Shown in pieces: positions 5,690 through 62,982 of a DNA stretch of 64,000 nt (positions within the stretch are counted from its first letter, which is position 1; each line of letters opens with the position of its first letter). The position numbers were made by a program, and so were the translations under genes. Location of the stretch: contig DAOUMV010000014.1 in NCBI GenBank assembly GCA_034408935.1, positions 32,564 through 96,563 of the forward strand, in the 5' to 3' direction. The notes under the pieces were generated by a model that saw nothing but the letters and a program-made list of their open reading frames with translations, searched no databases and was not told the origin of the DNA. The DNA is from Dehalococcoidia bacterium. Its GTDB lineage: Bacteria > Chloroflexota > Dehalococcoidia > SM23-28-2 > RBG-16-64-32.

Positions 5690-6964
5690 CTAGCGGGCGG
5701 CCATCCCCACGATCGGCTGGTTGAGAGTGATATTCCCCGTGGAGCCGTAGAAGACGGCATCGCCGAAGGCGAAAATGCCCCCGTCCGAGGCAACGAACCA
5801 GTAGCCGAGACCGGTTGGGTTAGCCGCCATCCCCACAACCGGCTGGTTCAGGACGATGTCCCCCGTGGAACCGAAGAAAGCGGCATCACCGAAAGCGAAG
5901 ATGCCCCCGTCCGAGGCCACCAGCCAGTAGCCGTTGCCGCTTGGCGTGGACGCCATCCCCACGATCGGCTGGTTCAGGGCAGTGGCGCCCGTGGAGCCGT
6001 AGAAGACGGCATCGCCAAAAGCGAATATGCCCCCGTCCGAGGCAACGAGCCAATAGCCGTTGCCGCTTGGGGTGGCGGCCATCCCCACAATCGGCTGATT
6101 GAGGGCGATGTTTCCCGTCGACCCGTGGAAGCCTGCATCGCCGAAAGCGAAGATGCCGCCGTCCGTGGCCACCAGCCAGTAGCCGTTGCCGCTTGGCGTG
6201 GCCGCCATCCCCACGATCGGCTGGTTCAGGACGATGTCCCCCGTGGAGCCGAAGAAGACAGCATCGCCGAAAGCGAAGATTCCCCCGTCGGAGGCCACGA
6301 GCCAGTAGCCGTTCCCGCTTGGCGTGGCCGCCATCCCCACAATCGGCTGGTTGAGGGCGATGGCGCCAGTGGAGCCGTGGAAGACGGCATCGCCGAAGGC
6401 GAAGATGCCCCCGTCCGAGGCCACCAGCCGGTAGCCAAGGCTGGGCTCCGGCGGGGCTACCCCCGGCAAGGGCGCGGGCGGGGGTATGAACGGAGGCGGT
6501 GGCGGAGGGGGCAGCGTGGGCACAACGGTCGTGGCCGTCCAGGTCAGCCCAGAAGAGTAGCATGGAGGCGCATATGGAGGAATCGCCCTCGCCGTGGCCC
6601 TGACACCGCCCTCAGCGCTGCCGGCTGTTGGGAACGAGCCGCCGAAAGACAGACCCCAAATCACAGTGCGGCTGAAACTGTTGTTGTCGATGCTCAAGGG
6701 CGGTGTAAATTGAACTCTCATCTCGCTGAACGTGCAAGTGTTGCCTGGGATGTCTGTGGCAGCGAAGCGGCTGATTCCCGATCCGTCAGCCGAAACGGTA
6801 AACTCGACCGTCCCGCCGCCGGAGTGAGTTCCCGTATAGGTAGCGCCGGCGATGACGTTGGCGTGGGCGCGCGGCGCGGTGTGGAGTGCGCCTGCGGCGA
6901 ACAGTAGCGTCGCCAGCGCCGTTAGCGCCACCAGGCTAAGCAGGGAAAAGCGCACCAATCGCAT
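5690..6964 (-). CDS. secreted protein with N-terminal domain, poly-Pro linker and 8 tandem ~41-aa repeats (GYWLVASDGGIFAFGDAxFxGSTGxIxLNQPIVGMAATPSGN); function unknown
   Basis: Start set at MRLVRFSLLSL (ATG at 6964) preceded by a perfect AAGGAGG SD. Signal-peptide-like N-terminus, PPPPPPPFIPPPAPLP linker, then highly regular repeats. The same repeat array is found in the 24864-27329 gene. Confidence 0.7.
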   Translation of the reverse strand: MRLVRFSLLSLVALTALATLLFAAGALHTAPRAHANVIAGATYTGTHSGGGTVEFTVSADGSGISRFAATDIPGNTCTFSEMRVQFTPPLSIDNNSFSRTVIWGLSFGGSFPTAGSAEGGVRATARAIPPYAPPCYSSGLTWTATTVVPTLPPPPPPPFIPPPAPLPGVAPPEPSLGYRLVASDGGIFAFGDAVFHGSTGAIALNQPIVGMAATPSGNGYWLVASDGGIFAFGDAVFFGSTGDIVLNQPIVGMAATPSGNGYWLVATDGGIFAFGDAGFHGSTGNIALNQPIVGMAATPSGNGYWLVASDGGIFAFGDAVFYGSTGATALNQPIVGMASTPSGNGYWLVASDGGIFAFGDAAFFGSTGDIVLNQPVVGMAANPTGLGYWFVASDGGIFAFGDAVFYGSTGNITLNQPIVGMAAR

Positions 6965-7144
6965 GTCCCCCTCCTTTCGGCACGATAGCGTGTCCATCAC
7001 AGCTATGTCAGCACTCTGAGGGGAGAAATCGGACTCATCACATGGCCCCCTCCCTCGTGTCCTTCAACCCGCGCCAAGGGGCTCACACGCTAGCACAACC
7101 TTCGCAAAGGTGTCAAGGGCGGCTGAAGCGCAGGCCCTGCCCCC

Positions 7145-8509: not shown

Positions 8510-9448
8510 CTATTTGAACGCGGGGATCACCTCCCGCGAGAAGCGCAGGAGGCTATCGCGGTGGAAGCGAGGGAACTGGGCCACGATGATCTCCTGCGCC
8601 CCCGCGTCGACGAACCGCTGGACGCCGGCCTTGACCTCGTCCACGGAGCCCATGAGGACCGAGCGGCGGGCGTCCTCCTCGCTGCCGCCGCGCAAGGAGA
8701 CAAGCCCCTGCACGACGCGCTGCTGGAAGGCCGGGTCCTCGTTCAGGAACAGCAGCACCTGGATCGTTCGCCGGATGCTCGAATAGTCGCGGCCCGCCTC
8801 GCGGCAGTGCCGCTCCAGCACCTCGAACTTGTGCCGGACCTCCTCGGGCGTGCCAGTGACGTTGGCGGCGTCGGCGTACCTGGCGACGGTGCGCAGGGTG
8901 CGCCTCTCGCCCCCACCACCGACGACGATGGGTGGGTGTGGCTGCTGGACGCTGGGCGGGTTGTACGGCGGCCGGCCGAGCTGGTAGTAGCGACCCTGGA
9001 ACTTCGGCCTGTCTTGTGTCCAGAGCAGCCTGATCACCTGCACCGCCTCATCCAGTCGCTCCAGCCGCTCCCTGGTGGTGTAGAAGGGGATGGCGAACGC
9101 CTGGTGCTCGTAGATGTGCCAGGCACCGCCAAGGCCGAACTCCAACCGCCCGCCGGAGATATGGTCCACCGTTGTCGCCATCTTGGCCAGGACTGCGGGA
9201 TGACGATAAGTGTTGCCGCTCACTAGTATGCCCAAGCGCACGCGGGAGGTGGCCTGGGCCAGGGCGGCAAGGGCGGTCCAGCCCTCCATGCAGGGGCCCT
9301 CGGAACCGAAGGCGGAGCCCGTGCCGGTCACGAAATGGTCCATCAGCCAAAGGTGATCGAAGTTGGAGTCGCGGTCCAGCTCTTGCCAGAGGGACAGCAA
9401 CTCGTCCCAGGAGACGTCCGCTTGAGTGGCTGCCGCACCGAACTTCAT
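8510..9448 (-). CDS. LLM-class (luciferase-like) F420-dependent oxidoreductase
   Basis: 312 aa. FDHLWLMDHF...GILVSGNTYRHPAVLAKMATTVDHISGGRLEFGLGGAW is the classic LLM signature. GGAGGAG SD upstream. Confidence 0.85.
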   Translation of the reverse strand: MKFGAAATQADVSWDELLSLWQELDRDSNFDHLWLMDHFVTGTGSAFGSEGPCMEGWTALAALAQATSRVRLGILVSGNTYRHPAVLAKMATTVDHISGGRLEFGLGGAWHIYEHQAFAIPFYTTRERLERLDEAVQVIRLLWTQDRPKFQGRYYQLGRPPYNPPSVQQPHPPIVVGGGGERRTLRTVARYADAANVTGTPEEVRHKFEVLERHCREAGRDYSSIRRTIQVLLFLNEDPAFQQRVVQGLVSLRGGSEEDARRSVLMGSVDEVKAGVQRFVDAGAQEIIVAQFPRFHRDSLLRFSREVIPAFK

Positions 9449-9466
9449 ATCTCCTCCTTCCTGTCC

Positions 9467-10420
9467 TCAGCGGAACGCAGGGATGACTTCGTTGGAGAAG
9501 CGGACCAGGGCTTCGAGATCCCATGGCGGAAGCTGAGTCACGTAGATCTCCTGCACGCCGACATCGATCAACGCCTGGACTTGAGCCTTCGCCTCGTCCA
9601 CGGAGCCGAGGATGACGCAGCGGCGCGCCTCCTCCTCCGTTACTCCCCGAAGAGCCGTGAAGCCCTGGATAAACCGCTGGTGGACGGCGGTGTCCTCCGT
9701 GAGGAAGATGGCCTTCTGAACGGTGCGACGAATGGTGGAGGGATCGCGCCCTATCTCGCGGCAGTGTTGGTCCAGAACGTCAAACTTGTGGCGAACCTCT
9801 TCCGGGGAGGCGTGGTCGAAGGACACGTTGGCGATATCGGCATACTTGGCGACGGTCCGCAGGGTGCGCTTCTCCCCCGTGCCGCCGATGAGGATGGGCG
9901 GATGCGGTTTCTGGACGTTGGGCGGGTTATAGGGCGGCTGATCGAGCTGGTAGTAGCGGCCCTGGAACGTGGGCTGCGGCTGCGTCCACAGCAGCTTGAT
10001 CACCTGTACCGCTTCGTCCAGCCGCTCCAGGCGTTCGCGGACGCTGTAGAAGGGGATGGCAAAGGCCTGATGCTCGTACTCGTGCCAGGCACCGCCGATG
10101 CCGAACTCGAGCCGCCCGCCAGAGATGTGGTCAACCGTGGTGGCCATCTTGGCCAGGACAGCGGGATGACGGTAGGTATTGCCGGTGACGAGGACGCCGA
10201 GACGAACGCGGGAGGTCGCCTGGGCAACCGCCGCCAGGGTCGTCCAAGCCTCCAAGTAGGAGCCCTCGGACGCGAAGGCGGTGCCGAAGCCCGTGACGAA
10301 GTGGTCGGCCAACCAGAGCGAATCGAAGTTCGAATCCTCATCGATCCGCCGGCAGAGGGAGAGGTACTCGTCCCAGGACATCTGGCTCTGCGATACCTGC
10401 ACCCCGAACTTGATACCCAT
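9467..10420 (-). CDS. LLM-class F420-dependent oxidoreductase (tandem paralog)
   Basis: Start set at MGIKFGVQV (ATG 10418-10420) with a GGAGGA SD. ~70% identical to the neighbouring LLM protein. Confidence 0.85.
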   Translation of the reverse strand: MGIKFGVQVSQSQMSWDEYLSLCRRIDEDSNFDSLWLADHFVTGFGTAFASEGSYLEAWTTLAAVAQATSRVRLGVLVTGNTYRHPAVLAKMATTVDHISGGRLEFGIGGAWHEYEHQAFAIPFYSVRERLERLDEAVQVIKLLWTQPQPTFQGRYYQLDQPPYNPPNVQKPHPPILIGGTGEKRTLRTVAKYADIANVSFDHASPEEVRHKFDVLDQHCREIGRDPSTIRRTVQKAIFLTEDTAVHQRFIQGFTALRGVTEEEARRCVILGSVDEAKAQVQALIDVGVQEIYVTQLPPWDLEALVRFSNEVIPAFR

Positions 10421-10422
10421 CT

Positions 10423-11790
10423 CTATCCTCCGTTCCCTGGCCCGATGCCCAGCTGCTGCTTGTAGTCCGGCTCCAAGGCGGCCAGCGCGCCCATCCGAAG
10501 GAAGCTGGTCAGTGGCCACTGCACCATCGCCCGCACCACTTGCAGCGGGAAGGCGAACTCGGGCTTGTCGCCGATGACCTTCGCCTCCTGGAGTTCAGCC
10601 AGCTCCTCATCAGAGAGGCCCAGGAGGCCCTGGAGCACCTCCCGGTTGTGCTCGCCCAGCCTGGGGGCGCCGCCGCGGGCCCCGACCTCGAACGCCGAGA
10701 AGCGGGCGCCTAACTGCTTGGGCACGGGACGAGCCTCCCCCGCGCACTCTACCATATCGAAGTAGCCGCGGTGCCGTAGGTGAGGATCGAGGAGCACCTG
10801 CTTGGGGTTGAGCACGGCCGCGGCGGTGACGCCCGCACCCTGGAGCAGGCGCATCGCCTCTACGTGCTCCTGCTCTCGTGTCCAGGAGGTGATCAGTTCG
10901 TCCAGTTCGTCGTGGTGGCGGTGGCGGCTCAGCACGTCGGCGAAGCGCTCATCCTCCGCCCACTCCGGGTGGCCGACGGCGCCGCAGAACGCCCGCCATT
11001 CCCCGTCGTTCCGCACCGCCAGGACGAGCCAGTCGTCTTCGCCTCGACAAGGGTAGCAGCCTTGGGGAGCGAACCACGGGCTGCGGTTGCCGATGCGTTC
11101 CGGCTCGCGGTCATTGAGAGCGTACTCCATCAGCGCGTAGCCACCCATGGCGATCGCCGCCTCGTGCTGCGAGAGGTCGACGTACTGGCCCTTGCCGGTG
11201 CGCCGTCTGTGGTAGAGGGCAGCCAGCACCGCCCCCGCTCCCATGAGGCCGCAATAGGGGTCCGTGAAGGAGATGCCGGTACGCAGGGGCTCGCCGCCGC
11301 GATAGCCGGTGAAGGAGGAGATGCCCGAGGCGGCTTCCAGCCCCGTGCCGTAGGCGGAGTAGTCACGCCAGGGGCCACTCTGGCCGTAGCCGGAGAGCGA
11401 GATCATGATCAGGTCTGGCTTGATCTTGCGCAGCGACTCGTAGTCAAGGCCGTGCTGAGCCATGACGCGGGGGGTGAAGCTCTCAGCGACGACATCAGCG
11501 TGGGGAACGAGGCGCTTGAACAGCTCGACGGCTTGGGGCTCGTTGAAGTCCAGAGTGATCGATCTCTTGCCGGCGTTTCGGAAGAGGAAGTAACCCATCC
11601 GGTTCCAGAAATCGCCCTCGGCGTTGTTGTCGGCTATGACGAGCAGACGGATGTTGTCGATGTGCCTGATCCCCTCGATCTTGATGACCTCGGCCCCCAG
11701 GTCGCAGAGGATGCGGGTGCAGGTGGGCCCGGCGTACACCTGCGTCAGGTCGAGGACGCGGACGCCGGAGAGGGGAAGGCCAGGCCTCAC
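10423..11790 (-). CDS. CoA-transferase family III (CaiB/BaiF) protein
   Basis: 455 aa. VRVLDLTQVYAGPTCTRILCDLGAEVIKIE signature. Start overlaps the upstream gene's stop (11787-11790). Confidence 0.85.
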   Translation of the reverse strand: MRPGLPLSGVRVLDLTQVYAGPTCTRILCDLGAEVIKIEGIRHIDNIRLLVIADNNAEGDFWNRMGYFLFRNAGKRSITLDFNEPQAVELFKRLVPHADVVAESFTPRVMAQHGLDYESLRKIKPDLIMISLSGYGQSGPWRDYSAYGTGLEAASGISSFTGYRGGEPLRTGISFTDPYCGLMGAGAVLAALYHRRRTGKGQYVDLSQHEAAIAMGGYALMEYALNDREPERIGNRSPWFAPQGCYPCRGEDDWLVLAVRNDGEWRAFCGAVGHPEWAEDERFADVLSRHRHHDELDELITSWTREQEHVEAMRLLQGAGVTAAAVLNPKQVLLDPHLRHRGYFDMVECAGEARPVPKQLGARFSAFEVGARGGAPRLGEHNREVLQGLLGLSDEELAELQEAKVIGDKPEFAFPLQVVRAMVQWPLTSFLRMGALAALEPDYKQQLGIGPGNGG

Positions 11791-13022
11791 GTGATCCCCC
11801 GCTCGCGCAGGATGCGCGCCTCCTCCGGGTCGTAACCCAGCCCCAGCAGCACATCATGGGTGTGCTGCCCCAGGGTGGGCGCGGGCCCCCTGCGGAGCGG
11901 CGTCTCCGACATCCTGAAAGGCGCGCCCGCCACCCGGACGGGCCCCATCTCTGGCTCCTCCACCTCCTGGAAGAAGCCACGCTCCTTCAGGTGCTCGTTC
12001 TCCAGCAGGGTCTTGGGGTCTAGGACGGCGGCAAAGGGGATGCGCAGCTCCTGGGCACGGGTGAGGAGGTCCTGCCAGTCGTGCTCCAGGAGGTAAGGGC
12101 GCAGGATCTCCTCGAACTGGCGCCACCGGATGAGACGCATCCAGGGATTCTGGAACAGCGGATGCTGCTCCAGCTCCGGCTGCTCCAGAAGAACGGCGAT
12201 GCCCAGGGGAAAGCCGGTGGATCCGCCGACGACCACGACGTGGCCGTTGCGGCAGGGATAGATTTCCATCGGATAGATGGGGGCCTGGTGCCGGGAGTAG
12301 AAGCGCTTACGCACGGCGCCCATGAAGGAGTAGAGGGCGGTGTTGTACTCGTCGGCGCCGCCCAGCGCCTCCAGCATGGAGACATCGATATGCTGGCCGC
12401 CGCCCCGCTGCCGATGCTCCACACCAGCCAGCACGGCCACCCAGGCAGTGACCCCAGCGAAGTACTCTGCGGGCTCCCCGCCGGTGCACAGCGGCTCCCT
12501 TTCCGGGTCGCCGGTGACATACATGAGGCCGGACAGGGCCATGCAGGTTAGGGAGTTGCCCCGGAAGCCGCTGTAGGGCCCGGTCTGGCCGAAGGGCGTG
12601 ACCGAGCAGTAGATGAGATCCGGGAACTCGCCCTTCAGGTCGTCGTAGCCCAAACCCATGGAGGCGAGATAGCCTGGCGGATCGTTCTCCACGAGGATAT
12701 CCGCCTTGGCCAGCAGTTTGCGCAGAACGGTGCGGCCGCTTTCGGTCCTGATATCCAGGGTGACGCTCTTCTTGCCACCGTTGAGGTGGACGAACAGCCC
12801 CCCCTTGTCGTGGTGCGGGACATCGTCCGGGAACGGGCCCAGGGCGCGGGCGTTGTCTCCCTCGGGGGGCTCGACCTTGATCACCTCGGCGCCGCAGTCA
12901 GCCAGGAGCTTCGCACAATAGGGGCCAGCGATCCCCTGCGAGAGATCGATCACGCGCAGGTCGTTCAGGGCCAACTCGGGCCCTTCGGCCGGGTTCCCTG
13001 GCCGGGCAGGCAGGGCAGGCAA
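11787..13022 (-). CDS. CoA-transferase family III (CaiB/BaiF) protein
   Basis: 411 aa. LRVIDLSQGIAGPYCAKLLADCGAEVIKVEPP signature. Confidence 0.85.
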   Translation of the reverse strand: MPALPARPGNPAEGPELALNDLRVIDLSQGIAGPYCAKLLADCGAEVIKVEPPEGDNARALGPFPDDVPHHDKGGLFVHLNGGKKSVTLDIRTESGRTVLRKLLAKADILVENDPPGYLASMGLGYDDLKGEFPDLIYCSVTPFGQTGPYSGFRGNSLTCMALSGLMYVTGDPEREPLCTGGEPAEYFAGVTAWVAVLAGVEHRQRGGGQHIDVSMLEALGGADEYNTALYSFMGAVRKRFYSRHQAPIYPMEIYPCRNGHVVVVGGSTGFPLGIAVLLEQPELEQHPLFQNPWMRLIRWRQFEEILRPYLLEHDWQDLLTRAQELRIPFAAVLDPKTLLENEHLKERGFFQEVEEPEMGPVRVAGAPFRMSETPLRRGPAPTLGQHTHDVLLGLGYDPEEARILRERGIT

Positions 13023-23767: not shown

Positions 23768-23826
23768 TTGACACAGACCCTCCGGTGGTGTAAATACATA
23801 TTAATCTGTAACAAGTGCCTTGTTAC
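23768..23826 (+). promoter_or_regulatory. sigma70-like promoter (TTGACA-17-TAAATA) followed by 8-bp perfect inverted repeat GTAACAAG-tgc-CTTGTTAC in the leader
   Basis: Read directly. The IR at 23808-23826 sits between the predicted TSS and the SD of the 23847 gene. Confidence 0.4.
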
Positions 23827-23846
23827 TACCAATAGGAAGGTCATCA

Positions 23847-24671
23847 ATGTTTCCTGCTCTAAAATTCCCTGCGTTTGCCGGGCTAGGCCTGTTGGCCGCT
23901 GTCCTGGCCGTCGGCCTGGTGATCAGCGGCACCGCTCACGCCGGGATATCTGACCCGCACTGCGTCAACCCGGATATCGAAGTGTGCATCGTCCTGCACC
24001 CGGAGACCGACTCCAACGAAGTGGGTACCAACCACACCGCCACCGCCACCGTCACCGGGGCCGCAGCGGGCACGCAGGTCACCTTCGAGGTCACCAATGG
24101 GCCCAACTTGGGGGACACCGGCACGGGCGCCATCGACGCCAGCGGTCAGGCCACCTTCACCTACACCGGCGACGGCGGCGCCGGCACCGACACCATCCAG
24201 GCCTGCGTCCCGGTACCCGCTCCTGCACCTACACCGACACCCACGTCTACACCTACGGCCACGCCTACAGGTACAGCCACACCCACGCCTACAGCCACGC
24301 CCACGCCTACAGCCACGCCCACGCCCACGCCTACGGCCACACCCACGCCTACACCGACGCCCACGCCTACACCCACGCCTACCGAAATGCCTCAGTTTTC
24401 TCGGCTACCAATAGCGCCCGGGGAGGCAGCAGTAGCAGCGATAGGAGATCTGCCAGGGGCGGCGCAAGCCCAGCAGCCAGCGCAGGCACAGGAAGAGGTC
24501 TGCGACACGGCCATCAAGGTCTGGACGCCGGCCACTCTCCCGGTGACCGGCGGCGCGCCCTCTGACGGCAGCTCCAGCGGCCTGACCTGGCTGGCTACCA
24601 TCGCCGGCGCCATCGCGGTCATGAGCGCTAGCGGCCTCTGGTTCGCCCACCAGCGAAGACACGTCCGATAG
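23847..24671 (+). CDS. LPXTG-anchored cell-surface protein, paralog (Big_1-like domain + long PT linker)
   Basis: Start set at MFPALKFPAFAGLGLLAAVLAV (ATG 23847, SD AGGAAGG). VTFEVTNGPN...ATFTYTGDG Big-like domain. (TPTP)n linker. The C-terminal 45 aa incl. LPVTGG...RRHVR is nearly identical to the first paralog at DNA level. Confidence 0.75.
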   Translation: MFPALKFPAFAGLGLLAAVLAVGLVISGTAHAGISDPHCVNPDIEVCIVLHPETDSNEVGTNHTATATVTGAAAGTQVTFEVTNGPNLGDTGTGAIDASGQATFTYTGDGGAGTDTIQACVPVPAPAPTPTPTSTPTATPTGTATPTPTATPTPTATPTPTPTATPTPTPTPTPTPTPTEMPQFSRLPIAPGEAAVAAIGDLPGAAQAQQPAQAQEEVCDTAIKVWTPATLPVTGGAPSDGSSSGLTWLATIAGAIAVMSASGLWFAHQRRHVR

Positions 24672-24863: not shown

Positions 24864-27329
24864 ATGAAGAATCCCTTCACGAGACCGGTCGCTGGCCCCC
24901 TCCTACTGCTCGCCGCCTCCCTGGCGACGTTGGCGATCGTGGCCCTTGCCGTCGGCCTGGCCACCGTCCGCGCCCATACCAGCGGCCCCAGCGCTTCCGG
25001 CTACGTCTGGGTGGACAACAACGCGCCCGACCCCGTCATCACCTTCGACTGGGTGGACGCTACCGGCGGGACGGCGGTGGTGAACTTCGTCGACGACCAG
25101 GGCAGCCCCAACGACGACGACGGTACGGTGACGTTGCCCCTGCCCTTCACTTTCAGCTTCTTCGGCACTGACTACACGGAGCTGGACATCGGCACCAACG
25201 GCCTCCTCAGCTTCGACATCGGCAACGCCTGCAACCGTCAATATAACTGGAACCACTTCCCCATCCCACACGACGACGCCGACTGCATCGCCGACGGCTG
25301 GGGCGGCAACCCCCTCATCGCCTCCTGGTTCGACGACCTCAACCCCGGTGAGTGCGGCGACATCTACTACGACACCATCGGCAGCGCTCCCAACCGCAGG
25401 TTCGTCGTCCAGTTCCACGACGTCTGCCACTTCCACTCCCAACCCGGCGAAGGCGTCACCTTCGAGACCATCCTCTTCGAGGGCTCCAGCGACATCAAGG
25501 TTCAGTACCTGGACGCCTTCTTCGGCACCGGCACTTCGGACATCCAGGAGGGGAACTACGGCGGCACGGCCACCACAGGGATCAGCCTGGACGGCTCCGC
25601 CGGCCTCCAGTACTCCTACAACGCCCCCGCCCTCACCGATGGCTTGGCCGTCCTCTTCACCACCCAGCAGCCTACAGCCTCGCGCACACCCACTCCCACG
25701 TCTACGCCTGCAGCGGTGCCCACACCGACGCCCACCGCTTCGCCGACGCCGATGGCCACGCCGACGCCCACCGTCCTGCCGGCGATAGCCGCGCCGGAGC
25801 CCAGCCTTGGCTACTGGCTCGCCGCCTCAGACGGCGGCACTTTCGCCTTCGGGGATGCCCTCTTCTTCGGCTCCACGGGCGCCATCTCCCTCAACCAGCC
25901 GGTCGTAGGCATGGCAGCCACCCCGAGTGGCAACGGCTACTGGCTCGTCGCCTCTGACGGGGGCATCTTCACCTTCGGCGACGCCGCTTTCCACGGTTCC
26001 ACGGGGAACATCCCCCTCAACCAGCCCATCGTCAGCATGGCCGCTACCCCAACCGGCAACGGCTACTGGCTCGTCGCCTCCGATGGCGGCATCTTCACCT
26101 ACGGCGATGCCGCTTTCCACGGCTCCACGGGCGCCATCGCCCTCAACCAGCCGATAGTGGGCATGGCAGCCACCCCAAGCGGCAACGGCTACTGGCTGGA
26201 GGCCTCCGACGGCGGCATCTTCACCTACGGCGATGCCGGCTTCTTCGGCTCCACGGGGGACATCCCCATCAACGCGCCCATCGTCGGTATGGCGGCCACC
26301 CCAACCGGCAACGGCTACTGGCTCGTCGCCTCTGACGGGGGCATCTTCGCTTTCGGCGATGCCGGCTTCCACGGCTCCACGGGCAACATCCCCCTCAACC
26401 AGCCCATCGTGGGGATGGCCGCCACCCTAAGCGGCAACGGCTACTGGCTCGTCGCCTCTGACGGGGGCATCTTCACCTACGGCGATGTCGGTTTCTTCGG
26501 CTCCACGGGCAACATTCCCCTCAACCAGCCGATAGTGGGCATGGCGGCCACCCCGAGCGGCAACGGCTACTGGCTGGTGGCCTCCGACGGGGGCATCTTC
26601 TCTGCAGCTGCTCCTGAACCCGGCGGCACAATCTGGAGGCCAGCCTTGAACACAAGCTGGCAATGGCAGCTTACGGGGACTTTGGACACCTCAGTCGACG
26701 TCGAGATGTACGACATAGACCTATTCGACAACGATGCAAGCGTGGTCGCTTCTCTCCACGCTCAAGGCCGCAGGGTCGTCTGCTACATTAGCGCAGGCTC
26801 TTGGGAGGATTGGCGACCCGACGCAGATCAATTCCCTGGATCGGTCAAGGGCAGAAGCAACGGCTGGCCCGGCGAGAGGTGGCTGGACATACGGCGGCTG
26901 GACATCCTCGGGCCAATCATGGAGGCACGGATGGACCTGTGCGCGCAAAAGGGCTTCGACGGCGTCGAGTTTGACAACGTGGACGGGTACAGCGGCAACA
27001 CCGGCTTTCCACTGACATACCAGGACCAGCTCACCTACAACAGATGGCTAGCTGGGGCAGCCCACGCGCGAGGCCTCTCCGTGGGTTTGAAGAACGATGT
27101 GGAGCAGGTGGTCGACCTGCTGCCGTTCTTCGACTGGGCGCTGAGCGAAGAGTGCTTCTCGTACAACGAGTGCAATGCTCTATTGCCCTTCATCCAGGCA
27201 GGGAAGGCCGTATTCGTGGTTGAGTACGATCTCTCAACCAGCCAGTTCTGTCCCCAGGCGAACGCCATGAATTTCAACGCGATGCGAAAGCACCTCGATC
27301 TGGACGCCTATCGAGAGCCGTGCAGGTAG
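24864..27329 (+). CDS. secreted multidomain protein: unknown N-terminal domain + PT linker + 7 x ~41-aa repeats (GYWLVASDGGIFxFGDAxFxGSTG...) + C-terminal GH114 (endo-alpha-1,4-polygalactosaminidase-like) domain
   Basis: SD AAGGGGCGGGAG. Signal peptide. The C-terminal ~230 aa read DIDLFD...RVVCYISAGSWEDWRPDADQFP...WPGERWLDIRR...GFDGVEFDNVDGY, matching the GH114/TIM-barrel (PelA-hydrolase/Ega3-like) family as recalled. The repeat array is the same family as in 5690-6964. Confidence 0.75.
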   Translation: MKNPFTRPVAGPLLLLAASLATLAIVALAVGLATVRAHTSGPSASGYVWVDNNAPDPVITFDWVDATGGTAVVNFVDDQGSPNDDDGTVTLPLPFTFSFFGTDYTELDIGTNGLLSFDIGNACNRQYNWNHFPIPHDDADCIADGWGGNPLIASWFDDLNPGECGDIYYDTIGSAPNRRFVVQFHDVCHFHSQPGEGVTFETILFEGSSDIKVQYLDAFFGTGTSDIQEGNYGGTATTGISLDGSAGLQYSYNAPALTDGLAVLFTTQQPTASRTPTPTSTPAAVPTPTPTASPTPMATPTPTVLPAIAAPEPSLGYWLAASDGGTFAFGDALFFGSTGAISLNQPVVGMAATPSGNGYWLVASDGGIFTFGDAAFHGSTGNIPLNQPIVSMAATPTGNGYWLVASDGGIFTYGDAAFHGSTGAIALNQPIVGMAATPSGNGYWLEASDGGIFTYGDAGFFGSTGDIPINAPIVGMAATPTGNGYWLVASDGGIFAFGDAGFHGSTGNIPLNQPIVGMAATLSGNGYWLVASDGGIFTYGDVGFFGSTGNIPLNQPIVGMAATPSGNGYWLVASDGGIFSAAAPEPGGTIWRPALNTSWQWQLTGTLDTSVDVEMYDIDLFDNDASVVASLHAQGRRVVCYISAGSWEDWRPDADQFPGSVKGRSNGWPGERWLDIRRLDILGPIMEARMDLCAQKGFDGVEFDNVDGYSGNTGFPLTYQDQLTYNRWLAGAAHARGLSVGLKNDVEQVVDLLPFFDWALSEECFSYNECNALLPFIQAGKAVFVVEYDLSTSQFCPQANAMNFNAMRKHLDLDAYREPCR

Positions 27330-29581: not shown

Positions 29582-30931
29582 TCACTCCTGCCACCTGACC
29601 TCGTGCAGCCGTACCGGCTTCTCGAAGCCCTTGAGGGTAGCCTCGCCCTTATCGGCGAAGGCGAAGCCCTTGCCAGCAGCAAGCTGCTGGACGACATCGG
29701 AGACGAGAATCTGTCCCGGCTCAGCGTGGTCGCAGATGCGCTTGGCCAGGTTCACGGCGGTGCCGAAGAGGTCGGCCTCCTCAGCGACGGGCTCGCCCGC
29801 GTTCATCCCGATGCGCACTCTGAGTGGCATGTCGCCTTGTTCGGCGATGGCCCGCTGGACGGCGACAGCGCACTCGATCGCCCGTGAGGCAGAGGGGAAG
29901 GACGCCATGATGCCGTCGCCGGTATGCTTGGTCTCGCTCCCGCCCTGAGCCTTGAGCGCCTCGCGAACGATGCTGTCGTGGGCGCGGCGGAGTTCCTGGG
30001 CCTTGGCGTCACCGAGGCGCTCAGTGAGGGCAGTCGAGGACTCCATGTCGGTGAAGAGGATAGTGGCGAGGCCGGACGGGACGGGTTCAGCGCGCACTTG
30101 AGATTCAGCCTCCATCAGGAAACCGTTGATGGCATCCAGCAAAGGCTTAGTGTCGCCCCACCAGGGCACATGAACGTCGCCTTCTAGTGGCTCAAGCCGG
30201 GCATCGGGAATGAGGGCGGTCATCTCGCGAGCCACGTCGAATGGGCAAAGAATGTCACCTCGGCGGTGGACCACGAGCGTGGGAGCTTGCACCTCCTCCA
30301 GCACGGACGTGACATCCTGTCCGTAGTTGGCATCCATCCAAGTAACGGCGTTCTCCGCGGAAGCCGCCTCCCGCTGCAACTTCGTCAGGAAGGCCACCTG
30401 GGCGGGGTCCCCCGACGGCGCGAAGACTGAGGATATGGCCGCGGACCCGGCGCCCCATGCGGCGCGGACGAGTGCCTTAAAGGGTTCATAAACTTCCGGC
30501 CGGGGGGCCCAGCGATGGTACGATCCATAAAGAACCAGGCGGGAGACACGCTCAGGGTGGCGGGTCGCGTAGACGAGGATCGTGGGACCGCCTTCGGAGA
30601 TACCCATTAAGGCGACCCGTTCTACTGCAAGCGCATCGACCACCGCCTCAAGGTCCCGCAGCTGGCCTTCCATCGAGAGGTCCGGAGCATCCCAGTCGCT
30701 CAGCCCCGTTCCACGCTTGTCCAATCGGACCAACAGGCGCGGCTCGGCGAGCCCCTGCCAGAATGCCCGCGTGTCCGCGTAATCCCACTCGACCTGGAGA
30801 TGGCTCACCCAGCCATGAGCCACCACTAGCGGCGGCCCCTTGCCTGCCGTAGCGTAGGCGATTCGCACACCGTCGGAAGTGGTGCAGAAGCGAATTTGCT
30901 GCTCCATCGGGATGCTCTCCTGGCGGAGCAA
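29582..30931 (-). CDS. alpha/beta-hydrolase domain fused to class III adenylate/guanylate cyclase domain
   Basis: N-terminus VVAHGWVSHL...GISEGG (nucleophile elbow GxSxG). C-terminus ILFTDMESSTALTERLGD...GDGIMASF...RVRIGMNAGEPV...DLFGTAVNLAKRI are class III cyclase catalytic motifs. Alternative start at MEQQIRF (30907). Confidence 0.8.
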   Translation of the reverse strand: MLRQESIPMEQQIRFCTTSDGVRIAYATAGKGPPLVVAHGWVSHLQVEWDYADTRAFWQGLAEPRLLVRLDKRGTGLSDWDAPDLSMEGQLRDLEAVVDALAVERVALMGISEGGPTILVYATRHPERVSRLVLYGSYHRWAPRPEVYEPFKALVRAAWGAGSAAISSVFAPSGDPAQVAFLTKLQREAASAENAVTWMDANYGQDVTSVLEEVQAPTLVVHRRGDILCPFDVAREMTALIPDARLEPLEGDVHVPWWGDTKPLLDAINGFLMEAESQVRAEPVPSGLATILFTDMESSTALTERLGDAKAQELRRAHDSIVREALKAQGGSETKHTGDGIMASFPSASRAIECAVAVQRAIAEQGDMPLRVRIGMNAGEPVAEEADLFGTAVNLAKRICDHAEPGQILVSDVVQQLAAGKGFAFADKGEATLKGFEKPVRLHEVRWQE

Positions 30932-31564: not shown

Positions 31565-32836
31565 TCACACGAAGTAGTGACTGTGCGCTTCGTCGATGGT
31601 GGAGGCAGTGAGAACTCTCTCGCCTCCCTGGTAGCGGGCGGCATCAGCTATCGCTTCGACGAAGTCGCGGGGGTAGCAACCACGCATCTCACGGATTCCC
31701 TCACCGAAGTACTTGTCCATGAGATAGATGGCGGCCTCCTCGTCGTAGGACACGTCGTTTCGCTCACACTCGCGCTTCATTATCTCCAGGAACATGGGGG
31801 CATCCGGCCCTGGAATCTTCACCTTGTAGCGAATCCTTCGCAGGAACGCATCGTCCGCCAACTGCGTCGGGGGTAGGTTGGACACGAAGACGGGGATCAC
31901 GTCGAAAGGAACCTCGAACCTGGCGCCACTGTGGAGCGACAGGTTGTCGGTCTGTCTTTCCAGCGGAACAACCCATCGGTTCAGCAGATAGGCCGCATCC
32001 AGGCGCTGACGCCCGAAATCGTCGATGATGAGGACGCCGCCATTGGCCTTCATCTGTATGGGCGCCTCATAGGTCTTGTGCACCTGGTCCAGCATGAGTT
32101 CCAGGTGATTGGCGGCGAGCTCCCCCGCGGCGAACACCGCAGGGCGCCTGATGACGACCCAACGTCGATCAGGCATCCCTCGTCCTCCTGACTTGCCGCT
32201 ATCCGCGCCATCGCCATCGACTGCTTCGTGAGTGGACGGGTCATATAGTTGAATCGTCTCCCGCATCACCTCGACGGCGTACGGGATCAGGATATGGCCG
32301 GACATCGCCCCTCCCAGCCCCTCGGCCGCGCTGGTCTTGCCGTTCCCGGAGGCACCGTACAGCAATGTGGCTCGCTTCGAGCTGACCGCTTGCCCAATGA
32401 GATCCAGCGTGCGCTGCGAAAAAACCAGGTGAGACAGACTCTCCTCAATCTCCTGCCGCGAAAGCTCCACGTCGTGAACCGTCTGTTTTCGTACCTGCTC
32501 GATGTAGGCCGCCACCGGCACGGGCGCCGGGCCAACGTAGCCGCTCATCGCCAGTGCTGCCGCCGCTCGCTCTATTCCCTTCGAGGTGAGGGAAATCCGT
32601 AGCGTCGCTACAGTGCGTCCCGTTCCCCCCAACACTTCGCAGAGACGTTCCCTCTGCAGGAATTCCAGTAGCTCCGTCGTGGCGTTTAGGGACAAGGCGA
32701 GGCGCTTGGCGATTTCGGCCCCGTCGATGTTGCTGGCGAAGTACAGCGTCTTCAAGGCGAGATCGGCAAGAACGCCCGTGTCGAGCCCCGTCGCAGCAAC
32801 CGTACCGGGAGCCGTAGGTCGTTTAATGTTAGTCAT
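31565..32836 (-). CDS. AAA+ family ATPase, function unknown
   Basis: Start set at MTNIKRPTAP (SD AAAGGAG). Walker A LLYGASGNGKTSAAEGL, Walker B-like VLIIDDFGRQR. ~150-aa N-terminal region of unknown type. No confident subfamily. Confidence 0.55.
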   Translation of the reverse strand: MTNIKRPTAPGTVAATGLDTGVLADLALKTLYFASNIDGAEIAKRLALSLNATTELLEFLQRERLCEVLGGTGRTVATLRISLTSKGIERAAAALAMSGYVGPAPVPVAAYIEQVRKQTVHDVELSRQEIEESLSHLVFSQRTLDLIGQAVSSKRATLLYGASGNGKTSAAEGLGGAMSGHILIPYAVEVMRETIQLYDPSTHEAVDGDGADSGKSGGRGMPDRRWVVIRRPAVFAAGELAANHLELMLDQVHKTYEAPIQMKANGGVLIIDDFGRQRLDAAYLLNRWVVPLERQTDNLSLHSGARFEVPFDVIPVFVSNLPPTQLADDAFLRRIRYKVKIPGPDAPMFLEIMKRECERNDVSYDEEAAIYLMDKYFGEGIREMRGCYPRDFVEAIADAARYQGGERVLTASTIDEAHSHYFV

Positions 32837-32889
32837 GACAGACTCCTTTGGCACCAGTTCGTGCAGGCACTCCCCAGATGCCCCTACCA

Positions 32890-32931
32890 GCGGAGCAAGC
32901 ATAGCGCTGAAGGGGGCACCCGTCAAAGGCA
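32890..32931 (-). promoter_or_regulatory. 41-bp promoter element copy B (1 mismatch to copy A)
   Basis: agcggagcaagcatagcgctgaagggggcacccgtcaaaggc, located 54-95 nt upstream of the ATPase start. Confidence 0.4.
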
Positions 32932-33106
32932 TCGAACGCTGATCGGGCGAGGACATCCGTGCCCGTCATATCGATCGCCATTTGCACGCTGGGGTGGGGC
33001 GGCCACATCCTAAGAGCCTATCCGATTCAGGCGGACGAAATCTCAGGCGCGGGTGGGCAGGACGAACCACCTGACGGTGGGACCATGAGGGCCCAGCTTC
33101 GAGCCC

Positions 33107-33493
33107 TCACACCACCGCCACCGCCTCGATCTCCACCAGCATCGCCGACTCCGCCAGGCCGCTCACCTCCACCATGCTGGCCGCGGGCTTCACCTCAGCG
33201 AACACCTCAGCGTGGGCGCGGGCCGCCTCCTCCCAACGCCTCATGTCCGTGAGGTAGATCCGCGTCCGCACCACGTCTCGCATCGTGGCGCCCGCCTCCT
33301 CCAGCGCCCGCTCGATGTTGCGCAGGGTCTGCCGCGCCTGGGCGTAGACGTCGCCCTCACCCACCAGCTTGCCGTCGTCGCCCCAGGCGACGGTGCCCGA
33401 GACGTAGACGGTGTCACCCACGCGGACGGCGCGGGAAAAGCCGATTACGTCCTCGTACGGGCTGTTCGAGGAGACACGCCGACGCTCTGCCAT
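33107..33493 (-). CDS. RidA/YjgF family (reactive intermediate deaminase) protein
   Basis: 128 aa. VYVSGTVAW...GDVYAQARQTLRNIERALEEAGATMRDVVRTRIYLTDM...MVEVSGLAESAMLVEIEAVA is the canonical RidA pattern. Confidence 0.85.
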   Translation of the reverse strand: MAERRRVSSNSPYEDVIGFSRAVRVGDTVYVSGTVAWGDDGKLVGEGDVYAQARQTLRNIERALEEAGATMRDVVRTRIYLTDMRRWEEAARAHAEVFAEVKPAASMVEVSGLAESAMLVEIEAVAVV

Positions 33494-33508
33494 CGCGGTT
33501 CCCCCTAC

Positions 33509-34123
33509 CTATCGCTGGTAGCTGCCCACAAGCTGCGCTTCGCCAAGGATGCGGCCCTCCATGGCGTCAACAACGTCCTGCTTCGACGCTCCTGGGTCCA
33601 ACTCAAGGAGGCCGTCGAGGGCGTAGAGGGAGAATCGATATCGGTGAGGGCCATCTGGCGGCGGACAAGGGCCACCGTAGCCGATATCGCCAAAGTCGTT
33701 CTTGCCCTGAAGCCCGCCGCTCTCCGGCCGCTCCGTTTTCGCCACCCCCGCGGGCAGGCCCTCGGTGGCCGCCGGGAGGTTGTACAGCACCCAGTGCGTG
33801 AAGCTGTCCCCGGGGGCATCCGGATCATCCACTATAAGGGCGTACGATTGGGTGTCCTGAGGAGCCTCACTCCAGGAGAGGGCGGGCGAGGTGTCATCCC
33901 CGTCGCAGGTGAAAGGAGGCGGGACCGCCTCATCGGGGCCGAAGGCATCGCTGCTCAGTGAGAAGGCCACGACCCAACCCGCCGGTGTCTCCGTGACGGA
34001 AGGCGACTCCGAGGGCGTCTCGGCCCCATCGCCACAGGCCGCGATCAGGAGTCCTACCGCGAGCCAACCGCAAAGGAACCACCTGATCGCTGCCGCTGTC
34101 ACCCGGTCCCGATGTCTGCCCAT
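33509..34123 (-). CDS. YbhB/YbcL (PEBP/Raf-kinase-inhibitor-like) family lipoprotein
   Basis: Lipobox LIAAC. FTCDGDDTSPALSW...LIVDDPDAP...HWVLYNL...GYGGPCPPPDGPHRYRFSLYALD are PEBP motifs. Confidence 0.7.
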   Translation of the reverse strand: MGRHRDRVTAAAIRWFLCGWLAVGLLIAACGDGAETPSESPSVTETPAGWVVAFSLSSDAFGPDEAVPPPFTCDGDDTSPALSWSEAPQDTQSYALIVDDPDAPGDSFTHWVLYNLPAATEGLPAGVAKTERPESGGLQGKNDFGDIGYGGPCPPPDGPHRYRFSLYALDGLLELDPGASKQDVVDAMEGRILGEAQLVGSYQR

Positions 34124-34128
34124 TGGTG

Positions 34129-35160
34129 CTACTCCCATAGCCCCTTCTGGAGCTGCTGCGGCACCTCCAGCCCCAGGTGCCCGTAGGCATGGCGCGTCGC
34201 CACCCGCCCCCGGGGCGTGCGCTGGAGAAACCCCACCTGCATCAGGTACGGCTCGTACACGTCCATGATGGTGTCCGCCTCCTCCGAGATGGAGGCGGCG
34301 ATCGTCTCGATGCCCACGGGCCCCCCATCGAACTTCTCGATGATCGTGTGCAGCACCTTGTGGTCCACCTCGTCCAGCCCCATCTCGTCCACATCCAGGC
34401 GGGCCAGCGCCTCCCGGGCCACCTCCGGCGTGATCACGCCCTCCGCCCGCACCTGCGCGTAGTCCCGCACCCGACGCAGCAGCCGGTTGGCCACGCGCGG
34501 CGTGCCCCGCGACCGCCGAGCGATCTCGCCCGCGCCCTCACCCTCGATCGGGATGCCGAGTATCGCGGCGCTCCGCGCCACGATGGCGGCGATCGCCTCC
34601 TGGTCGTAGAAGTCCAAGCGGTAGACAGCCCCGAAGCGGTCCCGAAGCGGCGGGCTCAGCATCGCGTAGCGCGTGGTCGCCCCGATGAACGTGAAGCGCG
34701 GCACCGACAGGCGGACGCTGCGGGCGCCCGGCCCCCGCCCCAGCACGATGTCCAACGCGAAGTCCTCCATCGCCGGGTACAGCACCTCCTCCGCCGCCCG
34801 CGGCAGCCGGTGCACCTCATCGATGAACAGCACGTCGTGCTCCTGGAGGTTCGTGAGGATCGCCGCCAGGTCCCCCGCCCGCTCGATCGCAGGACCCGAC
34901 GTCACCCGGATAGACACCGACATCTCGTGGGCGACGATGTGGGCCAGCGTCGTCTTGCCCAGCCCCGGCGGCCCGTACAGTAGCAGGTGATCCAGCGCCT
35001 CCTGACGTTGCTGGGCTGCGGCGATGCCGATGCTCAGGTTGTCCTTCAGTTTCTCCTGACCGATGAACTCCTCCAGCCGACGCGGCCGCAGGGTAGTGTC
35101 CAGCGCCAGGTCGTCCTCTTGGAGCTTCCCGGAGGTGATCCGCGTCTCCGCGCTGTCCAT
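34129..35160 (-). CDS. ruvB: Holliday junction branch migration DNA helicase RuvB
   Basis: 343 aa. [19 protein letters not shown]...[22 protein letters not shown]...[10 protein letters not shown], full-length collinear with RuvB. Confidence 0.95.
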
Positions 35161-35302
35161 ATCTGATTCGAATAGTTGTGCTGTTTTTCGCCCATTATAG
35201 CCCCCCAGGGGGGCTTGTCAAACCCCGCGTCTCGGTTATAATCTCTCAGAACGGCATATCTTTTACATTCTTCGTGCGCCCCTACACCACGGAGGAGACG
35301 AT

Positions 35303-35512
35303 ATGCAAAACCCTGCGCGCGACGGTCACATCGAGCTGCCGCTGGAGATCCTCCCCCAAGACGTCGAGTTGTATCACCTCTGCCCGTCCTGCGGGAACCG
35401 CTATCTCCAAAGCATCAGCATTCAGGAGCTGATCGACCGCATACAGGAAGGAAACCTGGTGGACCGCGTTCAAGGCGACATCGCGGAGGCCCCTGCGCGG
35501 CGTGACGACTGA
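35303..35512 (+). CDS. small hypothetical protein with CPSC motif
   Basis: 69 aa. Strong SD GGAGGAG 7 nt upstream of the ATG. Confidence 0.4.
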   Translation: MQNPARDGHIELPLEILPQDVELYHLCPSCGNRYLQSISIQELIDRIQEGNLVDRVQGDIAEAPARRDD

Positions 35513-35523
35513 CCCGCCCCCGC

Positions 35524-37500: not shown

Positions 37501-37734
37501 AGCGACCGCATCCTACGCCCCGCGCCGCGCTATCTGTAAGGGGAGAGTGGCAGACCGCGCTTCCCCCTCCCGTAGGTCGAGGCCCCAGCCTCGACCGTCC
37601 CTTCCCGCTCAGGGCGAGCGGGCGTCTACGGCGTGTAGCCCGTATTCAACGTCAGCGGCACTGCCCTCGTGATCTCGTCAATGCGTACGCCCATCGTCCG
37701 CGTGATCCCTACGGGATCAGCAGCGCGTCAGGCT

Positions 37735-37935
37735 TCAGCCGGCGCCTGCCGACGGTGTCGCGGGCTCCAACGCCGATGAGCTACCGCCACCCAGCGCGAA
37801 GGTTGAGACGGCCCGCTCCGCCTCGTGCTCCTGGCAACGCGGGCAGTCCACCTTGGACTCCCCCGTGGAGATGCTGCGCACGAGCTTCTCGAAGCGGTGG
37901 CCGCATGCGGAACAGACGTATTCGTAGATAGGCAT
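37735..37935 (-). CDS. FmdB-family zinc-ribbon protein
   Basis: [18 protein letters not shown]...CPRC, the canonical FmdB N-terminus with two CxxC pairs. Confidence 0.7.
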
Positions 37936-38034
37936 CCTGCGACTAGCATACCCCTCAGGGGTATGCTAGTCAACTGCCGCCCTCAACTTCTTCGGCCACA
38001 GGCTGCGCATAGCGACGGCATCCGGCCCCAGCGC

Positions 38035-39951: not shown

Positions 39952-39970
39952 ACTCTACCCCCTATGCGGG

Positions 39971-42196: not shown

Positions 42197-42292
42197 GGCA
42201 AACCCCCTTGGAAGCGCCCTTCCGGGCGCCCTCATTGTACGCCCCTGCTATGGGCTGTCAAGCGCCGCTCTCAACTTCTCCGGCCCCAGTGC

Positions 42293-44014: not shown

Positions 44015-44164
44015 GCCCGCCCCTCCAGGCGCTTCCATTGTACGCCCCTCTTATGGGCTGTCAAGCGCCTTTCCGGTGCCCCCTGACACATCCCCCTTAC
44101 AGGTGCAGAACGCGCGTTCTAGCATGGGTCACAGTCAAATCCCACTCAAGGAGGTTCCCGCCCC

Positions 44165-60525: not shown

Positions 60526-60529
<4 letters not shown>
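59468..60529 (+). CDS. secreted protein with SipW-cognate signal peptide, RTX-like Ca-binding GG.G.D repeats, FN3 domain and PT-rich tail
   Basis: GTG start overlapping the sipW stop (GTGA). IYGVFSDTETAEVSL SipW-class signal. Repeats GGDGDDKIYGGKGDDTIDGGPGRD. DLTWQAVADSLYYNIYRG...YYYVATAVD (FN3-like). (PTPEP)n tail. Confidence 0.7.

Positions 60530-62982
<2,453 letters not shown>

Follow-up and report, generated by a model that had tools for sequence, protein, structure and literature searches.

The window analysed here is a stretch of 64,000 nt from a Dehalococcoidia bacterium (contig DAOUMV010000014.1, positions 32,564 to 96,563, assembly GCA_034408935.1). It encodes two putative secreted proteins in which the same 42-residue tandem repeat follows different N-terminal domains, and in one of them the repeat array leads into a GH114 domain. 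The genes, here called gene 1 (minus strand) and gene 2 (plus strand), are listed with their parts in Table 1. Both had been located correctly in a preliminary description of the sequence: the open reading frames (ORFs) exist, and the start of gene 1 within its minus-strand ORF (5690-7000) holds because the ATG at 6964 is preceded by the Shine-Dalgarno sequence GAAAGGAGG, 6 nt upstream. Tandem Repeats Finder (TRF) returned a period of 126 nt, equivalent to a unit of 42 aa, with 5.9 copies at 5696-6436 and 6.3 copies at 25809-26600 (scores 1027-1213). The consensus GYWLVASDGGIFAFGDAxFxGSxGxxxLNxPIVGMAATPxGx and its tandem arrangement in both genes agree with the preliminary description, which had put the unit at about 41 residues and the number of repeats at 7-8; we count six units in gene 1 and six plus a partial unit of 13 residues in gene 2. 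With a hidden Markov model (HMM) of the single unit every unit scored at E 1e-26 to 1e-31, and no further copy of the repeat was found anywhere in the 64-kb window.

Pairwise DNA identity between units ranges from 78 to 90%, with a mean of 78% within genes and 78% between genes when all unit pairs are taken in, among them those with the partial, divergent seventh unit of gene 2. The two arrays are indeed inverted with respect to each other, at a distance of 19.4 kb instead of the roughly 18 kb first given, and their comparison showed no near-identity, the longest exact DNA match being 29 nt. Near-identical DNA within and between the genes had been taken as a sign of concerted evolution. As unit identity is no higher within than between genes and the longest shared match is this short, recent concerted evolution or gene conversion between the two arrays was rejected.

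The gene 1 product starts with a signal-peptide-like sequence (judged by eye), MRLVRFSLLSLVALTALATLLFAAGALHTAPRAHA. Its head domain has no match in Pfam and none in a PDB sequence search. Homologues of this domain (45-58% identity) carry other modules in place of the array, namely dockerin-like repeats (P0432), PASTA (PF03793, P0448) or a Lys-rich tail (P0434). We think it probable that gene 1 encodes a small surface protein composed of the head domain, a Pro-rich linker and what is predicted below to be an anchor propeller.

The N-terminus of gene 2 is hydrophobic, and one entry of the protein collection searched (P0121) is 100% identical to its product. No Pfam match was obtained for the head domain and its PDB sequence search was empty; homologues were found at 50-73% identity, several of them from Dehalococcoidia metagenome-assembled genomes (MAGs). 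Homologues with the same signal peptide and domain continue into a T/P linker that is followed by an LPXTG sortase signal (LPETGG in P0380, LPDTGA in P0404), and a distant match, P0433, carries PF06119 (NIDO). Residues 598-814 match PF03537 with 296.2 bits (cut-off 27, E 1.7e-88, profile positions 1-228 of 231), which confirms the GH114 assignment made earlier under the wrong accession, PF03659. A phmmer search aligned residues 590-790 to Ega3 (PDB 6oj1/6ojb) with E 1e-59. The catalytic nucleophile and acid/base of Ega3, D189 and E247, have been verified (PMC12054363). They lie opposite D704 and E762 when phmmer aligns gene 2 with 6oj1, and one shift in numbering, of 41, accounts for both pairs. 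The fusion of array and GH114 recurs, without the head domain, in P0122 and P0123 (60-63% identity). No exopolysaccharide locus was present in the inspected neighbourhood of the P0122 gene, which has an actinobacterial-looking context, and no galactosaminogalactan or Pel locus was seen near gene 2. Taken by its domains, a NIDO-like head, a T/P linker, an anchor propeller and GH114, the gene 2 product is a reasonably likely candidate for a surface-tethered endo-alpha-1,4-galactosaminidase, and it would make a candidate surface-bound degrader of cationic GalN-rich biofilm polysaccharide.

The ORF directly upstream of gene 2 (23820-24671, plus strand) encodes a probable sortase substrate. A signal peptide and a small domain lead into a long Thr/Pro linker, and LPVTG (24537-24551) is followed first by a hydrophobic segment and then by a basic tail. 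This plan matches the LPXTG-anchored homologues of the gene 2 head, P0380 and P0404, and the probable sortase substrate points to a monoderm organism with a sortase system.

Table 1. Coordinates of the two repeat genes, their parts and other features of the window.
Feature	Position	Strand	Remark or basis
Gene 1, coding sequence, 424 aa	5690..6964	minus	predicted signal peptide, small N-terminal domain, Pro-rich linker, six-unit array
Gene 1, N-terminal (head) domain, aa 36-148, 113 aa	6521..6859	minus	without assigned family
Gene 1, Pro-rich linker PTLPPPPPPPFIPPPAPLPGVAPPEPSL	6437..6520	minus	from translation
Array 1, six 42-aa units (last 38 aa)	5693..6436	minus	TRF, unit HMM, AlphaFold2 model, unit coordinates
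Gene 2, coding sequence, 821 aa	24864..27329	plus	predicted signal peptide or anchor, NIDO-like domain, Thr/Pro linker, array, GH114
Gene 2, N-terminal (head) domain, aa 38-269, NIDO-like, ~230 aa	24975..25670	plus	homologue comparison
Gene 2, Thr/Pro-rich linker, APEPSL at end	25671..25808	plus	junction motif common to gene 1
Array 2, six full 42-aa units and 13-residue stub GYWLVASDGGIFS	25809..26603	plus	TRF, unit HMM
GH114 catalytic domain, aa 598-814, Ega3-like	26655..27305	plus	PF03537 match, PDB 6oj1/6ojb
Predicted nucleophile D704 (EFDNVDGY)	26973-26975	plus	opposite Ega3 D189
Predicted acid/base E762 (LSEEC)	27147-27149	plus	opposite Ega3 E247
Luciferase-like monooxygenases, paralogue pair	8510-9448, 9467-10519	minus	
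Family III CoA-transferases, paralogue pair	10423-11790, 11787-13022	minus	
Cohesin domain PF00963 (E 2e-8) and TSP3 repeat	38035-39951	minus	Pfam
Weak NHL/YNCE propeller matches	39971-42235	minus	Pfam
No Pfam match	42293-44038, 35524-37500, 31565-32956	minus	Pfam

Predicted fold and relation to known repeat families

AlphaFold2 (AF2), given the gene 1 array with a 60-sequence alignment (A1), predicted a closed six-bladed beta-propeller (model mb6c3c90c2f2a) with a predicted local distance difference test score (pLDDT) of 96.6 and a predicted template modelling score (pTM) of 0.91; the model of whole gene 1 from its single sequence (pLDDT 41.6) was not usable. DSSP called 18 strands in strict period (6 x 3), strand A (IVGMAA), strand B (GYWLVA) and strand C (IFAFG) in each blade, with GDAxFxGS in the outer, fourth-strand position and not called a strand. 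A blade would be made up of these three strands and the outer segment. In array 1 strand B (here GYRLVA) comes first and strand A last, and because the chain begins B-C-(D) and ends with A we infer a velcro closure, the ring being closed by a C-terminal A strand that joins the N-terminal B-C-D strands and completes blade 1. Foldseek against the PDB returned 1433 matches at E<=1e-3, and the 50 listed are without exception propellers or complexes that contain one. The top matches, among them WD40/YVTN propellers, a designer protein with seven blades and a YVTN domain from an archaeal S-layer, have a probability of 1.0, TMq 0.5-0.64 and sequence identities of 8-18%. Among 379 homologues single arrays comprise about 6 units and double arrays about 12, and the commonest layout is that of gene 1, with B at the start and A at the end. 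The model thus gives high confidence that the repeat folds as a beta-propeller, with six blades in gene 1; a propeller had been anticipated in the preliminary description, which expected seven or eight blades.

The first B-C hairpin is missing from P0122, a collinear homologue of gene 2 with 63% identity over 493 aa that nevertheless keeps the same C-terminal stub before the GH114 domain, so the array of gene 2 may contain a spare hairpin within a six-blade ring. For both arrays TRF found a super-period of 378 nt (three units) slightly better than that of 126 nt (86-87% versus 83-85% matches), which hints that the six-blade array may stem from two copies of a three-blade block. Three-blade versions of the repeat are present in phage endolysins (see below). 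Family-wide, 26 of 41 positions hold the consensus residue in more than 75% of units (539 units), and inter-blade identity is 72% within one protein versus 65% between proteins. As every blade is conserved throughout the family, we attribute the symmetry to selection on each blade and not to recent amplification. Such equal conservation fits six equivalent sites.

In curated libraries (Pfam, NCBIfam and PDB sequences) no family matched the array of either window protein above threshold, in keeping with the earlier impression that the unit belongs to none of the known repeat families. None of the 60 members of alignment A1 matched a Pfam propeller family, and WD40, Kelch, NHL, YVTN, SBBP, PQQ and LDL-receptor YWTD repeats were all missing from the 25 families most often matched by these members at E<=1. 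A single Kelch_6 match (E 0.13) turned up among 57 two-unit segments. RCC1, which had been discounted along with the others, does show a weak resemblance. With a profile of two consecutive units (A2) the best PDB matches were RCC1-like domains, HERC2 (E 1.5e-3) and HERC1 (0.028), followed by RPGR and RCC1, and such domains account for 7 of the 14 matches. Pfam RCC1_2 was the commonest weak match of the two-unit segments (6 of 57, best E 9.5e-4, below the cut-off) and a sub-threshold match in 2 of the 60 array members, while the whole window proteins had no RCC1 match at E<=1. This signal, consistent but marginal, may mean that the repeat family branched off from the RCC1/BLIP-II superfamily as a short form with six blades.

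This resemblance raises the question of whether the propeller is a divergent RCC1/BLIP-II-type inhibitor or regulator of wall enzymes instead of an anchor. BLIP-II inhibits beta-lactamases and is reported to have three strands per blade, the number called by DSSP here, and one homologue (P0143) fuses the array to a class A beta-lactamase-type domain (PF13354). All RCC1 signals (PF00415, PF13540) nevertheless stay under the curated gathering thresholds, the repeat has six blades of 42 aa where seven of 51-68 residues would be expected, and an inhibitor is not expected in cis on dozens of unrelated enzymes. We regard an inhibitory role as very improbable.

Other sub-threshold matches of the array members are to Ribosomal_L24e (41 of 60) and to an SH3 model, and both can be traced to the DGxxFxF hairpin, repeated six times; the L24e-type matches cover 16-17 residues of it. 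An identity as ribosomal protein L24e (PF01246, 22 bits against a cut-off of 27; NF034186, 23 against 73, E 5.6e-5) was rejected, given that these matches are short and sub-threshold and that the model is a propeller and not a zinc ribbon. Many array proteins bear the name 'ribosomal protein L24E' in JGI/COG annotation, a systematic mis-annotation caused by the attraction of this hairpin to L24e models.

Distribution, partner domains and phage copies

A phmmer search of 1.84 billion cluster representatives (50% identity) found 19,626 proteins with the repeat at E<=1e-3 and 9,775 at E<=1e-30, and a scan of one genome per species gave more than 589 loci. Almost all of the best 80 belong to MAGs of Acidimicrobiia or Actinomycetota, and a genome carries several of them. 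For the window the taxonomic signals conflict (L030, L078, P0404, P0432): the arrays are nearest to those of Acidimicrobiia MAGs, both head domains are nearest to Dehalococcoidia MAG proteins, and the GH114 domain of gene 2 is nearest to Anaerolineales (66-68%) and an actinobacterial fusion. ClpC encoded in the window (60526-62982) is 61% identical to an Anaerolineales ClpC fragment. Going by these nearest relatives, the arrays may have moved between phyla.

Precomputed Pfam domains in the 120 best matches to the array comprise NlpC/P60 (38 cases), CAP (23), CHAP (4), YkuD (3), PG_binding_1 and GH43 (2 each), and M23 and VanY (1 each); about 40 have no Pfam domain. In a second set of 120 longer array proteins the partners were PQQ-type propellers (14), TolB-like or PD40 domains (11), GH43 (at least 10), sedolisin and S8 proteases, CHAP, YkuD, Amidase_2 with SpoIID, GH26, phosphoesterase, the beta-lactamase-type domain already mentioned, and GH114 in three clusters (P0121-P0123), P0121 being the window protein. 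All the listed partners are extracytoplasmic domains, and the commonest are peptidoglycan enzymes (NlpC/P60, CHAP, YkuD, M23, Amidase_2). The array stands at the C-terminus in about 60% of cases among the 379 homologues and at the N-terminus, after the signal peptide, in about 27%. It is N-terminal in the NlpC/P60 fusions, the arrangement also of the LysM repeats of Bacillus LytE/LytF/CwlS. Contrary to what the preliminary description implied, the repeat is neither rare nor specific to two genes. With at least 19,626 clusters and dozens of partner domains, its link to GH114 substrates (Pel, galactosaminogalactan) is incidental, while the other part of the role suggested there, binding to the cell surface, is favoured by the comparative evidence.

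Scans of IMG/VR placed the repeat in 12 distinct viral contigs (15 loci). The second scan added only three further loci, which overlap the endolysin of the first phage, together with L090, which matches outside the repeat. No repeat-carrying ORF was found in L099 and L100, and the repeat-containing frame of L094 was not recovered. Six contigs (L085, L092, L093, L095, L096, L098) encode proteins of 220-320 aa with a C-terminal repeat, and in five of the six an endolysin domain forms the N-terminus. Amidase_2 (PF01510) exceeds the Pfam threshold in L095 (2e-21), L096 (5e-15) and L098 (6e-8), and for L095 and L096 there are matches to many endolysin families of PHROG as well; the L085 gene is set among genes for tail-collar fibre, neck and tape-measure proteins. 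Annotated endolysins from phages of Cutibacterium, Mycobacterium, Rhodococcus and Gordonia share 35-38% identity with the amidase domain of L095; their own C-termini are different, and the repeat is found in none of them. As the repeat is C-terminal on amidases whose relatives bear other C-termini, it fills the slot of a cell-wall-binding domain: in these uncultured phages it sits where the endolysins of phages of Gram-positive hosts carry such domains.

The copies in these six phage proteins hold exactly two complete blades (L085, L098) or three (L092, L093, L095, L096), which as read from the sequences are in A-B-C-D register without velcro overlap. Since two and three both divide six, trimeric and dimeric six-blade rings suggest themselves, and by analogy with RSL and BambL the 2- and 3-blade copies may assemble into six-blade oligomers. 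Two much larger phage proteins (L091:2540-5671, 1044 aa; L097:3218-5524, 769 aa) contain about 12 and about 6 units mid-protein. Their common N- and C-terminal flanks have no Pfam or PHROG match and the PDB search with L097 was empty. Both proteins may use the propeller in a phage tail or in receptor binding. Among 50,697 GenBank phage records there was a single match, L101 (MK557849.1, 42901-46815) from Caudovirales GX15bay of mangrove soil. It is a 1304-aa 'glycoside hydrolase family 25' protein with a divergent array (34.5% identity over 94% of the query), whose gene adjoins that of a minor tail protein.

A proposed role in cell-wall targeting

We propose that the repeat forms a six-bladed module that targets proteins non-covalently to the cell wall, and put the probability of this reading at roughly 0.6. 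The propeller itself would be non-catalytic and portable, holding the secreted proteins that carry it on the wall of the producer or of a target. Its six equivalent sites would face a repetitive wall polymer, peptidoglycan or a secondary wall glycopolymer, so that binding is probably six-valent. Besides the prevalence of peptidoglycan enzymes among the partners and the place of the repeat in phage endolysins, the head domains speak for this reading: as relatives of both heads bear LPXTG, PASTA or dockerin-like modules, the array occupies a surface-attachment position.

Several points weigh on the other side. GH43, GH26, phosphoesterase and PQQ-type propellers have no obvious need of wall contact, and a carbohydrate-binding or protein-docking role would fit these partners equally well. 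Among the phage proteins the endolysin label of L085 and L093 rests on weak phrog_1493 matches (~1e-5), and the N-terminal part of L092 matches no Pfam or PHROG family. The oligomer model for the short phage copies could be numerology, built on the divisibility of blade counts. The six-blade AF2 model covers the array of gene 1, and that of gene 2 counts 6.3 units. Finally, both window genes are neighboured by unrelated metabolic and transport genes, so that genomic context gives no help.

An alternative, close to one raised in the preliminary description, is that the propeller works like a lectin or carbohydrate-binding module and brings glycosidases to external polysaccharides (poly-galactosamine, xylan/arabinan or mannan, for example) instead of anchoring proteins to the cell's own wall. 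Fusions to GH114, to GH43 (at least 10 of the 120 longer proteins), to GH26 and to other glycosidases agree with this, six equally conserved blades would suit the multivalent binding of sugars, and AAL and RSL are precedents of six-bladed lectins. Against it, the top partners (peptidoglycan peptidases and amidases, CAP, proteases) share no polysaccharide substrate, and phage endolysins attack the host wall from within. Moreover, arrays on different partner enzymes keep 55-77% identity, a point in favour of a single ligand shared by all. On balance we hold a lectin-like role unlikely.

Still less likely in our estimate is a protein-docking or oligomerisation platform, which might fasten exoenzymes to a surface-scaffold or S-layer protein, much as in cohesin-dockerin pairing, or just multimerise them. 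WD40-type propellers, the best structural matches, mostly bind proteins, a homologue of the gene 1 head has dockerin-like repeats in the place of the array, a cohesin-domain protein is encoded in the window (38035-39951), and the 2- and 3-blade phage versions imply self-association. Protein-binding propellers, however, normally have divergent blades, whereas here six follow one consensus, and C-terminal modules of endolysins bind the wall as a rule. In the loci inspected, no conserved partner gene adjoins the array genes.

Wall targeting could also be read more broadly, with the GYW-DGG propeller as the general non-covalent surface anchor of the whole class Acidimicrobiia and spill-over to other monoderms; we put this forward tentatively, as somewhat doubtful. 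Its role would then correspond to that of SLH in Bacillota or of CWB2 in clostridia, with six identical sites recognising a lineage-specific wall polymer. Phages would have copied the repeat in two forms, as self-assembling 2- or 3-blade endolysin rings and as full arrays within large, possibly tail, proteins. If so, the family would represent a new structural class of cell-wall-binding domain together with a natural series of oligomeric propellers.

A wall anchor of this kind would show how these bacteria display hydrolases and offer a handle on an uncharacterised wall polymer. As a new targeting domain it could also be built into engineered lysins or used to label uncultured cells. Taken together, the 2-, 3-, 6- and 12-blade versions would be a natural test bed for the origin of propellers from blade fragments. 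Some 20,000 clusters (50% identity) have no curated model and systematically go either without a name or under that of L24E, and definition of the family would improve the annotation of thousands of exoproteins of Acidimicrobiia, an abundant, poorly cultured lineage of soil and water.

Around the two genes the window encodes short-chain dehydrogenase/reductase (SDR), enoyl-CoA hydratase, luciferase-like oxidoreductases, ABC exporters and an EamA transporter, and an operon link for the array genes was rejected on these grounds. SDR and enoyl-CoA hydratase genes stand beside gene 1, and two enzyme types occur as adjacent paralogue pairs on the minus strand (8510-13022, Table 1). Paralogue expansions have been reported in SAR202-type Chloroflexota, which the gene content of the window recalls. 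A run of large minus-strand ORFs at 31565-44038 encodes probable secreted proteins, and the minus-strand ORF at 29582-30931 fuses an alpha/beta-hydrolase (PF00561) to an adenylate/guanylate cyclase catalytic domain (PF00211). No tRNA and no Rfam family were found in the window.

Comparison with known systems

Neither the propeller fold nor the principle of modular wall-binding domains is new. What appears to be undescribed in the curated libraries (Pfam and NCBIfam) and the literature searched is the sequence family, the use of a propeller as a wall-binding module of endolysins and exoenzymes, and the series of 2, 3, 6 and 12 blades. Literature searches gave nothing relevant on the repeat motif, on Acidimicrobiia propellers or on propeller-type binding domains of endolysins, and the passages searched in a survey of highly repetitive propellers (PMC9218822) make no mention of the family.

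With WD40 and YVTN proteins (the designer WRAP-T, 7bid; the archaeal S-layer YVTN domain, 1l0q) the repeat shares the toroidal beta-propeller predicted by the model. These proteins have seven blades, and the repeat lacks the GH/WD or YVTN motif, with identities of 8-18%. The likeness to RCC1/BLIP-II (PF00415, PF13540) extends to the order of elements in the unit, a hydrophobic strand, G, an aromatic strand, DG, xVFxFG and a G-rich loop, and to three clear strands per modelled blade. The repeat differs in the number and length of blades, six of 42 aa against seven of 51-68 aa, and with scores below the gathering thresholds homology is not established.

Gene 2 resembles Ega3, the GH114 enzyme of Aspergillus fumigatus (PDB 6oj1), in keeping the nucleophile Asp and the acid/base Glu. 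Both proteins are extracellular and surface-tethered, by a membrane anchor in Ega3 and by a predicted tether in gene 2. The gene 2 protein is bacterial and has two extra domains, the NIDO-like head and the propeller, and its activity is predicted.

RSL from Ralstonia, BambL from Burkholderia and the single-chain AAL are six-bladed rings of near-identical blades with a site per blade or interface, as proposed for the repeat. The rings of RSL and BambL consist of three two-blade chains, an arrangement that the two-blade endolysin tails of the phages may share. No sequence relationship to the repeat was detected; these lectins bind fucose, whereas the ligand predicted for the repeat is a wall polymer.

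The closest functional parallel is with the wall-binding modules LysM, SH3b, PG_binding_1, CW_binding_1/2, SLH and PASTA. Like them, the repeat belongs to secreted proteins, N- or C-terminal to varied catalytic domains that are chiefly peptidoglycan hydrolases, and it is C-terminal in phage endolysins. It also swaps with LPXTG, PASTA and dockerin-like modules in homologues, and its array is repetitive and potentially multivalent. It shares no sequence similarity with these modules, and where they are built as an SH3 barrel, a LysM beta-alpha-alpha-beta unit or a solenoid, the model of the repeat is a closed six-bladed propeller.

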